A program made the position numbers and the translations under genes. Source: Squalus acanthias (lineage: Eukaryota). From it: a stretch of DNA of 64,000 nucleotides. Positions 54,450 through 64,000 of the stretch are shown here, one piece after another (position 1 is the first letter of the stretch; each line of letters starts with the position of its first letter). The notes below the pieces were generated by a model, which ran no database searches, was not told the origin of the DNA, and saw only the letters and a program-made list of their open reading frames with translations. The stretch lies in the NCBI GenBank assembly GCA_030390025.1, contig CM059432.1:4588001-4652000 (forward strand), given 5' to 3'.

Positions 54450-57400
54450 CAATGTGATCATGGCTGATCATCCAAATTCAGTACCCTGTCCCTGCTTTCT
54501 CCCCATATCCCTTGATCCCTTTAGCCTTAAGAAATACATCCAACTCCTTCTTGAATCTATTTAATGAATTGGCCTCTACTGCCTTCTGTGGCAGAGAATT
54601 CCACAGGTTCACCACTCTCTGGGTGAAGAAATTCTTCCTCATTTCTGTCCTAAATGGCTTACCCCTTATCCTTAGACTGTGACCCCCTGGTTCTGGACTC
54701 CCCAACCATCGGGAACATCCTTCCTCCATCTAGTTTATCCTGTCCTGTCAGAATTTTATAAGTTTCAATGAGATCCCCTCTCATTCTTCTAAACTCCAGC
54801 GAGTATAAGCCCAATCGACCCAATCTCTCTTCATACGTCATTCCTGCCATCCCAGGTATCAGCCTTGTGAATCTTCGCTGAACTCCTTCCATGGCAAGAA
54901 CATCCTTCCTCAGATAAGGTGACCAAAACTGCACACAGTACTCAAGGTGTGGTCTCACCAAGGCCCTGTACAACTGCAGCAAGACATCCTTGTTCCTGTA
55001 CTCAAACCCTCTCGCTATGAAGGCCAACATACCATTTGCCTTCTTAACCGCCTGCTGCACCTGCATGCTTACCTTCAGCGACTGGTGCACAAGGACACCC
55101 AGGTCTCGTTGCACTTCCCCTTCTCCCAATCTATTGCCATTCAGATAATAATCTGCCTTTCTGTTTTTGACACCAATGTGGATAACCTCGCATTTATCCA
55201 TGTTATATTGCATCTGCCATGCTTCTGCCCAATCACCCAACCTGTCCAAATCATCCTGGAGTTTCTCGGCATCCTCCTCGCAGCACACACGCCCACCCAG
55301 TTTTGTGTCATCTGCAAACTTGGAGATATTACATCTAGTTCCCTTGTCTAGATCATTAATATATATTGTGAATAGCTGGGATCCAAGAACCGATCCCTGC
55401 GGTACCCCACTAGTCACTGCCTGCCACTCGGAAAAAGACCCATTTATTCCAACTCTTTGCTTTCTATCTGCCAACCAGTTCACTATCCAAGTCAATACCT
55501 TGCCCCCAATCCCATGTGCCTTAACTTTACACGCTAATCTCTTATGCGGGACCTTATCGAAAGCCTTTTGGAAGTCCAAATACACCACATCCACTGGTTC
55601 TCCCTTATCTATTTTACCAGTTACATCCTCAAAAAATTCCAGTAGATTAGTCAAGCATGATTTACCTTTTGTAAATCCAAGTTGACTTTGTCCGATCCTG
55701 TCACTGTTTTCCAAGTGCTCAGCTATTACATCTTTGATAATGGACTCTAGCATTTTCTCCACTACCGATGTCAGGCTTACCGGTCTGTAATTCCCCGTTT
55801 TCTCTCTACCACCCTTTTTGAATAGTGGGGTAACATTAGCTACCCTCCAATCCATGGGTACAGTTCCAGATTCCATCGAATGTTGGAAGATGATCAGCAA
55901 TGCATCTACTATTTCTAGGGCCACTTCCTTAAGTACCCTAGGATGTAGATTATCAGGCCCTGGGGATTTATCGGCCTTCAATCCCGTCAATTTCCCTAAC
56001 ACCATTTCCCTACAAATACTAATTTCTTTCAGTTCCTCCCTTTCATCAGACCCTATGTTCCCCGACATCTCTGGGAGGTTATTTGTGTCCTCCTTTGTGA
56101 AGACAGAACCAAAATATGTATTTAATTGGTCTGACATTTCTTTGTTCCCCATTATAACTTCCCCCGCTTCTGACTGCAAGGGACCTATGCTTGATTTCAC
56201 TAATCTTTTTCTCTTCACATATCTATAAAAGCTTTTACAGTCAGTTTTTATGTTCCCTGAAAGCTTACTCTCGTATTCTATTTTCCCCTTCTTAATTAAT
56301 CCCTTTGTCCTCCTTTGTTGAATCTTAAACTGCTCCCAATCCTCAGGGTTACTGCTTTTTCTGGCCAATTTATATGCCCAACACGGTGGCATATGGGCAA
56401 CACGGTGGCATAGTGGTTAGCACTGGTGCCTCACAGCGCCAGGGACCCGGGTTCGAATCTGACCTCGGGTGACTGTCTGTGTGGAATTTGCACATTCTCC
56501 CCGTGTCTGCGTGGGTTTCCTCCGGGTGCTCCGGTTTCCTCCCACAGTCCAAAAATGTGCGGGTTAGGTTGATTTGGCTATGATAAATTGACCCTTAGTG
56601 TTAGGGGGGATTAAATATGTGGGGTTACGGGGGTAGGGTGGGATATGTGTACTGTGGGGATTAAAGCAGGGATAGGGTACTGGATTTGGATGATCAGCCA
56701 TGATCGTATTGAATGGTGGAGCAGGCTCGACGGGCCGAATGGCCTACTCCTGCTCCTAGATTCTATGTTTTATGTTTCTATGTATGCCCTCTCCTTGGAT
56801 CTTATGCAATCCCTAATTTCCCTTGTTAGCCACAGTTGAGTCACCCTTTTTGTTTTATTCTTATGCCAAACTGGGATGAACAAATTCTGTAGTTCGTCCA
56901 TGCGGTCTTTGAATGTTTGCCATTGCCTATCCACCGTCAACCCTTTGAGTAACATTCCCCAATCAATCCTACCCAACTCGCACCTCATACCATCGTAGTT
57001 TCCTTTATTTAAATTCAGGACCCTAGTCTCTGAGTCAACTGCTTCACTCTCCATCCTAATGAAGAATTCTATCATATTATGATCGCTCCGACCCAAGGGG
57101 CCTCGCACAACAAGATTGCTAATTAATCCTTTCTCATTGCATAATACCCAGTCTAAGATGGCCTGATCTCTGGTTGGTTCCTCGACATATTGGTCCAGGA
57201 AACCATCCCGTAAACACTCCAGGAATTCCTCCTCCATAGTATTGTTACTAATTTGGTTAGCCCAATCTATATGTAGATTAAAGTCACCCATGATGACTGC
57301 TGTGCCCTTATTGCACGCTTCTCTAATTTCCCTTTTAATGCCATCCCCAACCTCCGCATTACTGTTTGGAGGTCTATATATCACTCCCACTAACGTTTTC

Positions 57401-58014
57401 TGCCCCTTGTTATTTCTCAGTTCAACCCATACAGATTCCACATCATCAGAGCTAATATCCTTCCTTTCAATTGTGTTAATCCCCTCTTTAACCAGCAATG
57501 CTACCCCACCTCCCTTTCCTTTTTGCCTATCTTTCCTGAATATTGAGTACCCCTGGATGTTGAGTTCCCAGCCTTGGCCACCCTGCAGCCATGTTTCAGT
57601 AATCCCAATCAAATCATATTCGTTTACCTCTATTTGCGCCGCTAATTCATCCACCTTGTTCCGAATGCTCCTTGCATTAAGACACAAAGCCTTCAGGCTT
57701 GTTTTTTTAACGCTCTTAGACCTATTAGAATTAGTATTTACTGTGGCCATGTTTGATTTAAACCGTTGTTTTCTCTGACTGCCACTTTTGTTTTCCTCCT
57801 TCCTGTCTTTTGCTTTTATCCTTGTTTCCCTTTCCTCTGTCTCCCTGCTCAGGTTCCCAACCCCCTGCCATTTTAGTTTAAACCCTCCACCAGAGCACTA
57901 GCAAACACTCCCCCTAGGACATCGGTCCCGGCCCTGCCCAGGTGTAGACCGTCCGGTTTGTACTGGTCCCACCTCCCCCAGAACCGGTTCCAATGCCCCA
58001 GGAATTTGAATCCC
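54450..58014 (-). mobile_element. CR1 LINE, 5'-truncated in ORF1 (SGNH tail), near-complete ORF2 (APE endonuclease + RT)
   Basis: 57873-58013 DGLHL esterase end; 57750-56790 NARS/ITETWL/GDFN/SDH; 56379-54690 PQGSVLG/FADD; CR1 3' end. Confidence 0.93.
56380..56782 (+). mobile_element. HE1-like V-SINE inserted in CR1 ORF2
   Basis: tRNA-like head (A/B boxes), V-domain tgtgtggaatttgcacattctccccgtgtctgcgtgggtttcctccggg, CR1-type tail, TSD TATGCCC (56373-56379 / 56783-56789). Confidence 0.88.
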
Positions 58015-58725: not shown

Positions 58726-61700
58726 GTGACTCATACAGTAACGGGCATGTCACGGCCACAAAAGCAGTATAGTTTCCCCAGAGAGGCAGAAGCCGACTTG
58801 GAAATGGCACTGGGATCCCTGGTAGAACAGGAGGTGTTGAGGCCGATAGCCAACCACGTGAACTCACCACTCTGGCCGGTTAGGAAACCCGACCAGTCAT
58901 GGAGGGCCACCATGGACTATTGGGTGCTCAATAAAAACATCCCAGCCTGCGCGCCCACAGTCGCGGCTGTTGCCGATCTGATAGGGAGCATTCCAGCAAC
59001 CGCAACCACTTTTACGGTGCTGGATATCTCCAATGGGTTTTGGTCGATTCCTCTAAAAAGAGAAGACCAATACAAGTTTGCCTTTACTTTTAAAGGGCAA
59101 CAGTACACCTGGACATGCCTTCCCCAGGGTTTACATAACAGCCCTTCCATATTCCACCAGTATGTGGAGGACGCCTTAAAGGGTTTTAGTCGACCTCAGC
59201 AGCTAGTTCAGTATGTGAACGACTTGCTTTTGTTCTCCGCCGAGGGGGAGGAGCATGGGCCACTGCTGGCCGAGCTGCTCGAGCTGCTGAGGGAGGCCGG
59301 GTTTAAAGTAAACCCGAAGAAAGCCCAGATCGGCCGCGAGAAAGTCAAATTCCTCGGGCTGACGGTAAGGGCAGGGGAAAGGGCCATAGATGAGGCAAAA
59401 AGAAAGGCAGTACAGAAGTTACCAGTCCCCAAGGACGTAACAGTGGTAAGATCCTCCCTGGGACCCACAGGGTACTGCAGGGATTTTATTGAGGGTTACG
59501 CAGCCACGGCAGCCCCTCTGCTTTGGCTCCTCCGCAAGGGAGTGGGGTGGGTGTGGGACCAGAACTGCCAGGAAACATTCACACACCTCAAGGAGGATTT
59601 GCAGACAGCTCCTGCACTGGGGGCCATCAATGGTGGAGTGGAATTCTTTTTAGAGGTAGCAGCCAGCAGGTATATCTTGAGCGCGGTGTTGCTCCAGAAG
59701 CGACACGGCAAGCTACGGCCCGTGGTCTACTCATCTAGAGTTCTCACCGAGGTAGAACGGGGATATTCCAACTGCGAGAGGCATCTCCTGGCCACGCATT
59801 GGGCCGTAAAGCGCTCACAGCTCTTTACGGGATCATCCCTGATAGTTCTACTCACCCACCATACCCCCACTCAGATGTTGTTGGACGGGAGAATAAAGGA
59901 CGGGACAGTGAGCAGTGCTCGCATTGCTCGCTGGACTTTATTGCTCTCGCAGATGAATCTGAGAGTGCAGGGGTTGACCGAGCCCAAGTTGGCAGCGAAT
60001 TTGATTTACCCAGGTACGGCCCACACGTGTACGGTAGAAGGGGTATGGGACATGGATGTCGGGTTCCGGGCCGGGTTACACCCGACGGGCTGGGACATTT
60101 ACGTGGACCGGTCCAGTTCGGTAGCAAAGGGGGAGCGCTTCACCGGGTGCGGGATTTATGACCCAACGGCTAAGATAGCTAAGGCCCTTAAACTCCCCAG
60201 CACCCTGAGCGCTCAGCACGTCGAACTGGCGACGGTGGTGGATGTGGTCACCCACCCCGATGAATTCCCCACCCCCTACACCATCTGCTCAGACTCCATG
60301 TTTACATGTAATTCGTGCACCGAGCACCTGGCCAGCTGGGCTCGGCGCGGTTTTAAATCTGCGGATGGGAAGCCCCTAGCAACAGCACCGCTGCTAGGGA
60401 GGATTTTGGAGGTCACGGGCACCCGGGGAGATCACTATATACATAAGGTCAAGACCCACTCTAAGACAAAGCCCAGAGGGGAAGGTAACCAAAGGGCCGA
60501 CGAGTTGGCCAAGCAGGGGGCCAGGGAAGGAGAGTTCTGGGATCCCTATGAAGTAGGTCCGGTAGCAGCAATCCGGGACAAGGGAGGAACACCGAGAGTA
60601 ACTTTGACCCCGGACTTAAAACAAGTCCAAGCCCAGGATCCCGTCCTTAAGGCTATCCTGGGGAAGAAGGAAAAGGGCGAACAGGTAGAGGGTCCGTTCG
60701 GAGCAGCGGACATTACCGTTAAAGAGGGGATGCTATTTAAAGGGGATCGGTGGATAGTTCCCAAGCGATACCAGAGGGAATTCCTCCAGTTGGCCCACGG
60801 GGGCCCAGGAGCGGGACACCCAGGGCCGGAAACTACCTGGTAGAGGGTAGAACAGGCAAGGTGGTGGCCGCAAGTCAGGGAGGATGTCCACGACTTTTGC
60901 GCGGACTGCCTGGTGTGCGCAGCAAACAACCCCGATCCTCAGCGCAGGAAAGTCCCCATAGGACACACAAGGAGGGTAGAGGGACCATGGCAGTCCCTCC
61001 AGGTCGATTACATCAGACCACTACCCACCACACAGGCAGGTAACAAATACTGCCTAGTCCTGGTGGACGTGTTCTCCAAGTGGGTGGAAGCCTTCCCTTG
61101 GCGAATAGCCACGGCTTTGGCAAGGATTCTGGTAAAGGAAGTGTTCTCCCGGTGGGGACTGCCACAGGTCGTGGAGTCCGACCAAGGGAGTCATTTCACG
61201 GGGCAAGTAATGCAGGCCACCTTGGAGCTTTTAGGGATTGAGGGGAAGTGGCATGTGGCTCACAACCCACAGTCATCGGGGGTTGTGGAGCACCTTAACC
61301 AGACGATTAAAGAAAGGCAAAGGAAAGAGACAGGGTCGTCACCGAAATAGTGGGATGAGATCCTGCCGTCAGTGTTAATGGGTGTCCGGGCCAGCCTCCC
61401 CAGAAGCACAGGGTATTCCCCGCATGAGCTCATGACCGGGAGGGTCATGCGCACCCCCACCCACGTTTTGGCACCGGTCCTAACGGAAGCCCAAGTCCGG
61501 GAAGTGAACCGGGACAAGTTTGTACAGAATCTGTATGATAAATTAAAACAGATTCACTGGCAGGCAGCCAGTAACATGGGGAACCAGCACTGGAAAAATC
61601 GGTTGCTGCTCGAGCCCCAGAAAACCCACGAATGGAAGGTGGGAGACCAGGTAATGGTACGGAACTATGCCCGGGTAGGGGCATTTGAGCCACTATACAT

Positions 61701-62001
61701 GGGGTTGTATAGCATAGTGGACAAGGCAAGCCCCATGGTGGACGCGGTTAAACTCCCAAAACGCACGAAGTGGTTCCATATTAACCAGTGCAAGCGGTTT
61801 AACCCAGGGGAGAGAACAACAAAAGTAAAACGACACCAAGGCCCAATACTGAGCATGGTGGACGCGGGTCTTCCTCCCATGATTTGGGATGACGATGGCC
61901 CAGTGGTCGGGACAGTAAGGAGGAGCAGTAGGGTCCCACGGCCGAGGACACTGTGGATGCCTCTTCACACGCCGACCGTGAGCTGCAAAAGGCCCCGGTG
62001 A
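58726..62001 (+). pseudogene. pol: Retroviral pol: RT - degenerate tether RNase H - RNase H - integrase (HHCC, DDE, GPY/F-like)
   Basis: One reading frame broken only by TAG stops at 60841 and 61348. RT: NSPLWPVRKPD, LDISNGFWSIP, LPQG.HNSP, YVND (YVDD mutated, 59212-59223). Tether: LEVAAS...RPVVYSSR...YSNCERHLLA. RNase H: IYVD.SS, SAQHVELA, SDS, GNQRADELAK. Integrase: H..GH...CLVC, QVDY, ESDQGSHF, PQSSGVVE. Confidence 0.93.
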
Positions 62002-62121
62002 GAAGACCCTTAGCGGGGGCACCCGGCAACATGGGTAGTGATGTACATGGTCTTAATGTACATAGTTCTTGTATATAACGAAGCCAGACCTGTGGAGGTA
62101 AACCCTCTCACAGAAAGGGAT

Positions 62122-62141
62122 TGTTGCTTTTTGTTTCATAG
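62122..62141 (+). promoter_or_regulatory. Putative env splice acceptor
   Basis: tgttgctttttgtttcatAG ends 15 nt before agaATGG (62157). Confidence 0.65.
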
Positions 62142-62156
62142 GAAGCCGAGGACAGA

Positions 62157-64000
62157 ATGGAGACAGCCCTGAGACTGAGCGTGATCTTGATGTTGGCCGG
62201 AACGGGGCACAGCAGGAGAGGGGACACCGAGTCGTCCCTCCTCTATGGCTGTACTGGGGGGGACGGACCCACTGTGACTAAGGGGGGTAGGAGGGGGGAC
62301 ACAGACGGGATGGCAGCCTACTTCCACGAGGGAAGATGGCCAGGGTGGCTGGGGTCCAATTCGACGAAATACTCCAGCCACGCCGGGTTCACGTACGGGG
62401 AGGCTTCCCTACCATGTCCCCAACTGAAGATCACAGCCACACGGGTTAGGGTGACCTTGGGCAAGCGCGTATGCTTAAGATGCAAGAGACACATTCCCCT
62501 GGGACGGTGGTGGTGGCTTAGGAAGTTGAGTCAGGACAAGGGGAGCAGGTCAGCGGACTGTGAAAGACTGGGGAACGACACGTACCGACAGATCACGGGG
62601 ACGAAGGGGGGAGTGGAAGTGTGCTGGAACAAGTGGTGGAAGGAGGAACAGGGGATTTATGTGTGTGTGTGGGGGTCAGAACGGATCTGCCCAGCGGGTG
62701 TGTCGATTGCTTTCATACGGCAATGGCAGGATTCCGGGGCTGGTATGGGATGGGATCGGAGTTTGGATGCTTGCGTAGTCCCAGACCCTCCCAGCACAAT
62801 AAATTCCACGGAACTGGTAGTGCACGATCGGAAGCCCTGCCCACAGCCCCACCGGTACAGGAGACAGAGGTAAGGTGTCCCACCACCACACCAGGCCCAG
62901 GGAATGGTTTAGTTCTAGTCCTGAGCGGGAAGGTTTTATTCCAGGATGTACATTACGCAGCCGCGTCGGTCATCTTAAATTTAACCCGGGTGCAGCTGCC
63001 CGAGTGGTGTCCGAAGGAGACTGAGCAGTTTTACGAAGCCCTTATTAAAGAAATGTTCCGCCAATTTTTTGAGCTCACCTACAGGGATGTGAGTCGGGAG
63101 AAACTGTATGGCGTGGATGCGTACGATAGAGGCAATCCGGGTAGACAAAGGCGAGGGACGGTTAATGACATGGCCATGGGCTTTTAGCACGGGCACGTCC
63201 CTCGTCAATAGTATGGATGATATCCAGCTGCAGATGCAGATTAATAGTTTAAAGGACCAGCTGCGAAAGATACTGGGGGAAGGGAACAAGGTGGAAGGTT
63301 CGGAGCTAAAAGAAGACCAGGCGATGACCATTCATTTAAAAGAGGTCATCACTGAGCTGGAGACACACGCCAAGACCATCAACGATTTGATACGGGAGAA
63401 CAGGAATGCCTCGGCACAGGCAGCCAGAAGTGATGCGTGTGTGCTGTACGGTGCGTGGTTGCTAAACGAGGGACGCAGTAATCTGGAGGACTTACAACAA
63501 GGTCGCGTCCCATCGTGGGTTCGCAGCCGGCACCTCACAGCGCTCAGCCTGTATCATAATTCAATGAGCCCGTGTCAGCTCCGATTAGCTTCCGAAGCCT
63601 ACCCAGTCCCAGTTGATTGCGGACGGTCCAACCACACGGTTATGGGGATTGTACTGCGGATGCCGGTAATGGGCGGGTCACCGCAGCCAGTGCCGATATA
63701 CCGGGTCGATAACATTGGCGTCTTGAGGGACGGGGTGCATGTGCGGTATCATGGGGCCCCACCATTTGTTATAAAGTGGGAGCATGCCATGACCGGCACT
63801 GACCTCAAGGGGTGCCAGAGCAGGGGCGCACACGTGATATTGTGTCCCCAGCACCTGAACGCTTTCGATCGACCAGTGTGTGGGTTTGAATCGGAAAGTG
63901 CAGAGCCCATTAATTGCACCATGGAGGTGATGGCCCAGAGCCACGTTCCACCTCAGGTAGCACACGCGGGCGACGGGACGTACTGCGTCACGACAAGCGT
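62157..64000 (+). pseudogene. env: env-like gene: signal peptide, RGD/Ig-like module, F2-like region, RQRR, fusion peptide/heptad repeat, Cys-rich F1; two frameshifts; runs off the window
   Basis: ORF 62157-62873 (signal peptide), a -1 shift near 62865 into the 62621-frame ORF (GLVLVLSG...RQRR/GTVNDMAMGF), then a +1 shift in the T-run 63182-63185 into a frame open from 63186 to the end (STGTSLVNSMDDIQLQMQINSLKDQL...IVLRMPV...IYRVDNIG...CTMEV...GDGTYCV). Several N-glycosylation sequons. Confidence 0.85.

Follow-up and report, generated by a model that had tools for sequence, protein, structure and literature searches.

The last part of a 64,000-nucleotide stretch of the Squalus acanthias genome (hereafter the window; assembly GCA_030390025.1, contig CM059432.1, positions 4,588,001 to 4,652,000 of the forward strand) holds, from 58726 to 64000, the 3′ part of a decayed endogenous retrovirus (ERV). 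Its pol remnant ends in a stop at 62001 and is followed on the + strand by an open reading frame (ORF) of 238 amino acids (aa) in frame 0 (62157-62873), which begins METALRLSVILMLAGTGHS and is, judged by its sequence, the N-terminal part of the env gene. Two more open pieces lie downstream, one in frame 2 (62621-63187) and one in frame 0 (63108-63998), the latter still open at its 3′ end where the window ends. Taken together, the analyses below lead us to think it quite probable that the envelope protein (Env) of this family carries an N-terminal head ahead of an F-type fusion protein, in the order signal peptide (SP)-[head]-linker-F2-RQRR-F1, and that the head is itself immunoglobulin (Ig)-like. 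The locus had been singled out by an original prediction of an Ig-like, double-RGD module with a furin site of its own, fused in front of a viral F-like protein. The sequence features from which that prediction was built, i.e., the hydrophobic N-terminus, the RGDs, VCLRC, WWWLRK, EEQGIYVC, RYRR and a TAA stop inside AG/GTAAGG, were all found where it had placed them, and its several claims fared differently once other copies of the element were brought in.

Continuity and conservation of the env reading frame

Searches of the S. acanthias genome (3.7 Gb) with the 238-aa query gave more than 6000 first-look candidates; all 150 scored matches had E <= 1e-99 and identities of 63-100%, and most of them stop at query residue 229-231. 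The sister loci compared here are 29 best matches plus 20 picked for long open frames, a chosen rather than a random sample, and 44 of these 49 could be aligned at the DNA level across the first of two breaks in the window's frame. A one-base length difference from the window was found at this break in 40 of the 44, within eight nucleotides (Table 1) that lie about 30 nt upstream of the position (62865) at which the original prediction had proposed to restore one base; the one-base break is real, its place was misjudged. The window's length state is common to three loci (L002, L012, L029); in L014 another shift lies close by, and the frame is regained a few codons downstream. Open frames of at least 450 aa were present in 21 of 50 fetched loci, and the junction is read through in every one of the 21; the L003 ORF, for example, runs for 661 aa from METALRL through the junction, as STELVVHDRKPLPTAPPVQETEVRCPATTPGPGNGLVLV, into the downstream region. 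The native in-frame reading across the window's own junction would be HDRKPLPTAPPVQETEVRCP, and the frame is continuous into the F part in another species as well. Since the F-like part follows in the same frame in 40 of the 44 sister copies that could be aligned, the module belongs to Env as its N-terminus and is not an accessory gene, and the claim that it is fused to the F-like region in one polyprotein is borne out, also by the long ORFs. Continuity in other genomic copies and conservation of the RGDs and RYRR were among the points on which the original prediction was to be judged; continuity held, RYRR was not conserved, and the first RGD was conserved within the genome but in a single relative from other sources.

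At the second break, which returns the reading to frame 0, the window is one base off in length from all 12 close full-length copies aligned there, which are a selection from the loci. Matches that reach query residue 237-238 are few (11 of the 150 scored), and a single stretch of contig C6 (46.8-47.2 Mb) accounts for six. The fetched copies from this cluster (L012 and L029) have the window's frameshift state together with a common internal deletion of about 500 bp, which suggests that an already broken copy was amplified by segmental duplication, the shifted variant having apparently been copied as DNA.

These alignments bear on two readings of the end of the window ORF, where RYRR (aa 233-236) is followed by the TAA stop. 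In the original prediction RYRR was a furin site belonging to the module, and the ancestral Env a tripartite SP-[RGD/Ig unit]-RYRR-F2-RQRR-F1 precursor, which would be cleaved twice by furin, as is respiratory syncytial virus (RSV) F with its p27 peptide. RYRR does stand in frame 0 of the window and of the three sister loci with the same length state. However, 40 of 44 alignable loci have the other length state, one base apart from the window's, and RYRR is therefore an out-of-frame reading. R-x-K/R-R occurs in the linker of none of the 21 long sister ORFs, whose in-frame linkers read PLPTAPPVQETEV, PLPTTTTSRTVEE, PLPTTQVPKTLEE, PPPRAPTVQMTVD and similar, nor in that of the skate relative P0004 (PPTVPLAVAQEGE); L014, with its short out-of-frame stretch, reads PHRYRG at this place. 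The module's own furin site is thus a product of the frameshift, the tripartite precursor falls with it, and we regard a twice-cleaved Env of this kind as next to impossible. The alternative offered alongside it, in which the ORF encodes a secreted accessory protein of its own, terminated by the TAA and with a splice donor at the stop, agrees with the window ORF, which does stop inside a donor-like AG/GTAAGG. Yet GTAAGG is found at the site in none of 44 sister loci, most of which have GTTAGG or ATTAGG (L047 has GTAAGA), so the stop and the donor-like motif are substitutions private to the window copy, and in sister copies and another species the frame runs on unbroken into the F part. This reading is scarcely more credible than the twice-cleaved precursor.

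By alignment, RQRR at the F2/F1 boundary is the sole conserved cleavage site of the Env family: most sister ORFs read GRQRRG, and R-x-K/R-R stands in the same column in the distant relatives P0016, P0022 and P0024. A further R-x-K-R motif in the window, RCKR (62478-62489, aa 108-111), falls within the putative B strand of the module and is private to the window copy, sister copies having Gly in the last position (LRCKGH, LTCKGR).

The module itself has eight conserved Cys and three conserved N-x-S/T sequons (62358-62366, 62574-62582 and 62802-62810). Across 24 aligned rows, some of them from other species, C106, W120, C156, Y168, C170 and C178 are invariant, and C32, C87, C109, W118, W119, G166 and C206 are kept in at least 90% of the rows; the window copy has private changes, e.g., a Cys at aa 135 that replaces a conserved Trp. 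Between six subfamily representatives (15 pairs), ratios of nonsynonymous to synonymous substitution (dN/dS) were 0.07-0.25 (module), 0.08-0.22 (F part) and 0.12-0.58 (linker), with higher values for the signal peptide; the ratios are rough because dS is often above 1, i.e., saturated. The module is therefore a real coding domain under purifying selection. A Met followed by a hydrophobic stretch, as in the predicted signal peptide of the window copy, stands at the equivalent position in other subfamilies.

Folds of the fusion part and of the N-terminal module

For modeling of the full-length Env, the longest env frame left open in any fetched locus (780 aa, counted from its Met) was taken together with a 40-row alignment. 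The resulting model has a mean predicted local distance difference test (pLDDT) score of 51, with blocks of 70-85 in the F part. Foldseek returned 116 PDB matches at E <= 0.001, headed by human parainfluenza virus 3 (hPIV3) F (1ztm_C, 2.9e-9), with RSV F, Langya F and Newcastle disease virus (NDV) F also at the top, and with foamy-virus Env (8rm0) at rank 40. VIA-align placed residues 245-649 of the model on residues 26-431 of hPIV3 F (1ztm_B; Z 9.7, root-mean-square deviation [rmsd] 9.3, 316 aligned) and on residues 38-438 of NDV F (1g5g_A; Z 9.5, rmsd 6.6, 293 aligned), and residues 238-651 on residues 139-848 of foamy-virus Env (8rm0_A; Z 7.6, rmsd 16.4, 274 aligned). Long helices were modeled at 382-444 and 682-711, followed by a hydrophobic helix from 730. 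The downstream part of Env thus has the paramyxovirus/pneumovirus F (class Ib) fold of domains I-III in a model of moderate confidence, which upholds the earlier claim of a viral F-like protein at this place. The alignment of the F chains begins just past their signal peptides, and in the model at about residue 245, so that Env residues 1-244 are without counterpart in F and constitute an add-on. In sequence searches the likeness did not surface: the Pfam family Fusion_gly (PF00523) gave no match at E <= 1 on P0016, P0022 or P0024, and neither phmmer with the F1-like piece nor a profile search with a second family alignment returned anything meaningful from the PDB sequences.

Several lines suggest that the core of the add-on resembles an Ig V domain. 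Its motifs have the canonical spacing, with C106/C109, then W118-120 about 14 residues on, then E164-x-G166-x-Y168-x-C170 about 64 residues past the first Cys, and these residues are among those invariant or kept in at least 90% of the 24 rows, other species included. Pfam Ig_3 is the sole recurring family, matched by 17 of 24 members at E <= 1 with a best value (8.5e-4) that is below threshold; in P0001 residues 85-167 fall on profile positions 2-74 of 78. AlphaFold2 modeled aa 1-230 of the window as all-beta, with a mean pLDDT of 40 and a core of 50-65, and the full-length model is similar. In a Foldseek search of the PDB with the module model, all 50 rows shown were V-domain chains of antibodies, T-cell receptors or NITRs (E 0.011-0.07), and a wide VIA-align search of 48,161 representative chains, made independently of Foldseek, gave a top 50 that consisted nearly entirely of V-type Ig domains (Z 5.0-6.0), CD8 alpha and the IgNAR V domain included. 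Among these were NKp44 (1hkf_A; Z 5.7, rmsd 3.3, 87 aligned, model 92-218), TREM-1 (1u9k_B; Z 5.7, rmsd 3.5, 90 aligned, model 93-220), TREM-2 (5eli_A; Z 5.7, rmsd 3.5, 87 aligned, model 93-220) and CD300lf (5or7_C; Z 5.5, rmsd 3.4, 81 aligned, model 92-179). With 18 V-set exons of the S. acanthias genome (found with PF07686) as the target, hhalign in a permissive setting gave an alignment collinear through the B-strand Cys, the C-strand Trp and the F-strand YxC; its score of 18.7 was reached by 3 of 200 column shuffles (null mean 12.4, standard deviation 2.7), and the reversed alignment scored 15.6. Neighbors of the module in the ESM Atlas were weak, with Ig families at 0.82-0.83, below the level at which this tool offers more than a lead.

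A number of results weigh against an Ig-like receptor-binding head on an F-type protein. The Ig_3 scores are about 15-17 bits compared with a gathering cut-off of 30 bits, no Pfam family matches the window ORF or either F-like piece at E <= 1, and PF00523 finds nothing on P0001 even at E <= 10. The pLDDT of the N-terminal module is 25-65 in both models, none of its fold matches in the PDB reaches Z 8 or a Foldseek E <= 0.001, and the PDB is rich in antibodies; against BFVD, too, Foldseek gave no match at E <= 0.001, and the list was mixed. The hhalign comparison of the module profile with host V-set exons has a probability of 2% (E 0.024), those with the N-terminal regions of P0016 and P0024 are not significant (1.2 and 0.15), and a profile search of PDB sequences with the module brought nothing meaningful. 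Finally, the module is as conservative as the fusion part, unlike many receptor-binding domains (RBDs), which are under arms-race pressure. Each line for the Ig fold is weak when taken singly, but the lines are concordant, and we consider it likely that the module contains an Ig V-like domain. Of the Ig-fold pattern originally proposed, the motifs stand and the domain is probable, with Pfam support below threshold and models of low confidence. The Pfam and AlphaFold comparison suggested at the time yields the all-beta core and, for the window copy, no Pfam match; the assignment of STELVV to the G strand has no support in the low-confidence models, which place the last strands of the sandwich at about aa 182-207.

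Three other views of the module deserve to be weighed here. The conserved pattern of C...W...YxC could be mimicked by a receptor-binding head with a novel, disulfide-rich beta domain of non-Ig fold. This would suit the low pLDDT, the eight conserved Cys (a plain Ig domain has two) and the fold and profile scores, all of which lie in the range that the tools describe as possibly common arrangements; we nevertheless think it unlikely, as independent weak lines all lead to V-type Ig domains and to nothing else. Capture of the Ig-like module from a host gene of the Ig superfamily (IgSF) is compatible with the head preferred here, and the fold neighbors, host single-V receptors such as NKp44, TREM, CD300 and CD8, are what it would lead one to expect. 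On the other hand, a search of 1.84 billion representatives with the module profile gave no host IgSF protein, nor any other host protein, at E <= 0.001, and the hhalign comparison with the host V-set is marginal. The donor named in the original prediction could not be demonstrated, and host origin seems to us about as doubtful as a non-Ig fold. The third view, that the virus attached chiefly by RGD-integrin binding at the N-terminus of the mature protein, is less probable again. In its favor, the first RGD (RGD-1) is present in 40 of 43 alignable sister loci (the other three have RED, RGH and QGD), across subfamilies, and also in 18 of the 21 long ORFs, where its flanks vary (R/D/H/E-RGD-T/V), although such counts overstate constraint because copies within one genome share ancestry. 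It also lies in a probably flexible N-terminal segment (pLDDT < 50), and an RGD/RSD motif of metapneumovirus F is described in connection with integrins (PMC10815723, PMC3564117). Against it, the position reads RGA in P0003 (sawshark), RGR in P0004, P0005 and P0009 (skate) and in P0006, GGN in P0008 and RAN in P0011 (both whale shark), P0019 being the sole relative from other sources in which it reads RGD. The second RGD is confined to one subfamily; at its position 15 of 49 sister loci have RGD and 13 have TGD, the others including ERG and GS. Both motifs of the predicted "double RGD" are present in the window, but the pair appears to be a feature of one subfamily, and RGD-1 a lineage-specific trait at most that is not kept across species.

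From the sister copies, the intact Env of the family can be set out as follows, with an Ig V-like head as the preferred reading. After the signal peptide comes the Cys-rich, N-glycosylated module of about 205 residues, with its probable Ig V-like core at aa ~89-179, then the short Pro/Thr-rich linker, the F2-like region, the single RQRR furin site, and F1 with heptad repeats, a transmembrane (TM) helix and a tail. Upon furin cleavage the module would stay joined to F2, and hence to F1, as a "surface subunit." By analogy with the RBD of foamy-virus Env and the S1 modules of coronavirus spikes, it may be the receptor-binding head that a virus with F alone would need, and it may have a part in triggering fusion; the earlier suggestion that the module supplies receptor binding is reasonable on the same analogy. 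In the window copy, two one-base length differences and private substitutions produce the apparent RYRR, the stop and the donor-like motif.

The provirus, its relatives and a second env lineage

Coordinates of the features are collected in Table 1. The pol remnant belongs to the same provirus, with Pfam E-values of 3.1e-31 (RVT_1), 3.6e-21 (RT_RNaseH_2), 1.8e-15 (RNase_H) and 4.9e-14 (rve). Directly upstream of it, on the - strand, are two long ORFs (54659-57897; 585 and 375 aa) that by eye belong to a retrotransposon of the long interspersed nuclear element (LINE) type, with endonuclease and reverse transcriptase (RT). With this element in place, the provirus is 5′-truncated and here lacks gag, protease and the 5′ long terminal repeat. 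A pyrimidine-rich run that ends in AG (ttgctttttgtttcatag; 62115-62141), 15 nt 5′ of the env ATG, looks like a candidate for the env splice acceptor.

Table 1. Coordinates of the retroviral features in the window.
Feature	Position	Strand	Basis
Remnant of pol from the same provirus, spread over three frames: RT, tether-type RNase H-like domain, RNase H and integrase	58726..62001	+	Pfam and ORFs
Predicted signal peptide of Env, aa 1-19	62157..62213	+	Hydrophobic N-terminus read by eye; helix 3-10 in models
Cys-rich N-terminal ectodomain module of Env, aa 20-226, frame 0	62214..62834	+	Alignments; dN/dS
RGD-1, just after the predicted signal peptide, aa 21-23	62217..62225	+	Sequence
RGD-2, aa 46-48	62292..62300	+	Sequence; one subfamily
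Probable Ig V-like beta-sandwich core, aa ~89-179, with VCLRC (B), WWW (C), ExGxYxC (F)	62421..62693	+	Weak concordant lines
First break (length differs by one base), reading passes from frame 0 to frame 2	62831..62838	+	Alignment to sister loci
Pro/Thr-rich linker and F2-like region, frame 2 (LPTAPPVQETEVRCPTTTPGPGNGLVLV...)	62839..63142	+	Collinear with sister ORFs
RQRR, furin-type cleavage site at the F2/F1 boundary	63143..63154	+	Sister ORF alignment
F1-like region (fusion-peptide region, heptad repeat A, start of beta-rich domains), runs off the window	63155..64000	+	ORF and fold
Second break, one-base length difference, reading back to frame 0	63178	+	Alignment to close copies

Relatives of the module are elasmobranch proteins only in the search of the 1.84 billion representatives (Pristiophorus, Rhinoraja and Rhincodon among the named sources), and word-based homologue searches gave few matches, all elasmobranch; the module profile used for the representatives and for the PDB sequences had 527 positions, two long proteins being part of its alignment. 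Relatives of the F part are more widespread and include proteins of Chiloscyllium, Mustelus, Scyliorhinus, Heptranchias, Heterodontus and the frog Pelodytes. Stretches of this env are contained in three Pristiophorus japonicus proteins (P0003, P0007 and P0015), which bear the names of ZFP2-like, Niban 1-like and cadherin-related 5-like models and are probably chimeric gene predictions that run through ERV copies. P0016 carries the automatic UniRef name "Ig-like domain-containing" and has no Ig match in Pfam. The frog protein P0024 (Pelodytes ibericus, 723 aa) has an N-terminal hydrophobic span, then REKR-S, then a region of Ig-like pattern, an arrangement that may recall the leader peptide of foamy-virus Env.

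The S. acanthias genome also holds a second lineage of F-type env, with more than 11,000 first-look candidates (L051-L062 were fetched, e.g., L053:757-2958:+ and L057:2191-3471:-). It is about 46% identical to P0022, from residue ~140 on only, and ahead of the same CP..GP.NGLV start it has an unrelated Cys-rich module of about 300 aa, which contains an R-L-R-R-G motif and for which Pfam gave no match, together with a Pro/Thr-rich linker. An unrelated head before the same F start indicates that the head is an exchangeable part of these envelopes. A broader proposal, which we make tentatively and would rate a little short of even, is that elasmobranch genomes hold very large families of retroviruses with an F-type (class Ib) Env that were missed by an RT-based screen for lokiretroviruses, and that these viruses bear interchangeable heads on the N-terminus of F2, Ig V-like in the family of the window and unrelated and Cys-rich in the sister lineage. 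For annotation, several "host" gene models in shark databases are probably chimeras with this env, and the apparent furin site, stop and splice donor of the window copy are artefacts of decay.

Comparison with known envelope and fusion proteins

Paramyxoviruses and pneumoviruses divide attachment and fusion between two proteins, and retroviruses with an F-type Env have one protein for both. The Env described here resembles paramyxovirus and pneumovirus F (1ZTM, 1G5G, 3RKI) in the fold of residues ~245-650, in the furin site before F1 and in the heptad repeats. F, in contrast, starts right after its signal peptide (chain residues 26-38 fall on model residue 245), has no N-terminal head and depends on a separate H, HN or G protein. 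The Env of this family would, under the broader proposal made above, be a natural example of an F protein that became self-sufficient for entry. In gammaretroviruses the surface subunit (SU) has an RBD with an Ig-like core followed by a proline-rich region, so that the order of head, Pro-rich linker and rest of SU is shared with the present Env, whereas the fusion subunits are of different families. The best structural neighbors of the low-confidence module model are single V-type Ig receptors (NKp44, 1HKF; TREM-1, 1U9K; TREM-2, 5ELI; CD300lf, 5OR7); there is no significant sequence similarity to them, and the module is longer, by about 70 residues ahead of the sandwich and about 45 behind it, with six further conserved Cys. 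In the literature searched, no description was found of an N-terminal Ig or head module with a Pro/Thr-rich linker on the F-type Env of an ERV.

Among retroviruses, the lokiretroviruses have an F-related Env, for which the model sp-RXKR-fp-cc-tm was given (PMC7947760, Wang and Han, 2020). The present element shares with them this kind of Env, with signal peptide, furin-type site, fusion peptide, coiled coil and TM segment, and a dual RNase H (RT_RNaseH_2/RT_RNaseH plus RNase_H). None of the words immunoglobulin, RGD, receptor, N-terminal and shark occurs in the main text of the paper, whose supplement lists 0 of 6 chondrichthyan genomes as positive (PMC7947760). F-type env ERVs are abundant in a host group for which the published screen reported zero lokiretroviruses. 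The thousands of F-type env copies found here were either overlooked by that screen or belong to elements whose RT is not of the lokiretrovirus type.

Another precedent is foamy-virus Env gp130 (8RM0/8RM1), described in PMC11468914, a retroviral Env in which a receptor-binding module has been added to an F-like core, the module being carried in Env because a separate attachment protein is absent. The two differ in where and how the head is attached: in foamy viruses the RBD interrupts the F scaffold, being placed between N-SU and C-SU, and the leader peptide provides a second membrane span (PMC11468914), whereas in the present Env the module stands ahead of the F2 N-terminus and is probably Ig-like. 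Coronavirus spikes likewise have a class Ib fusion core with receptor-binding modules N-terminal to it, but these are two large S1 domains of other folds, and the spike lacks domain II (PMC11468914, Figure 5); it has no sequence relation to the present Env. Under the broader, tentative proposal made above, class Ib fusogens would have taken up an RBD independently at a third site in the shark Env, the other two being those of foamy-virus Env and the coronavirus spike. Where and how such a head was added bears on how class I(b) fusion proteins evolve by modules and on how the glycoproteins of retroviruses and mononegaviruses are related.

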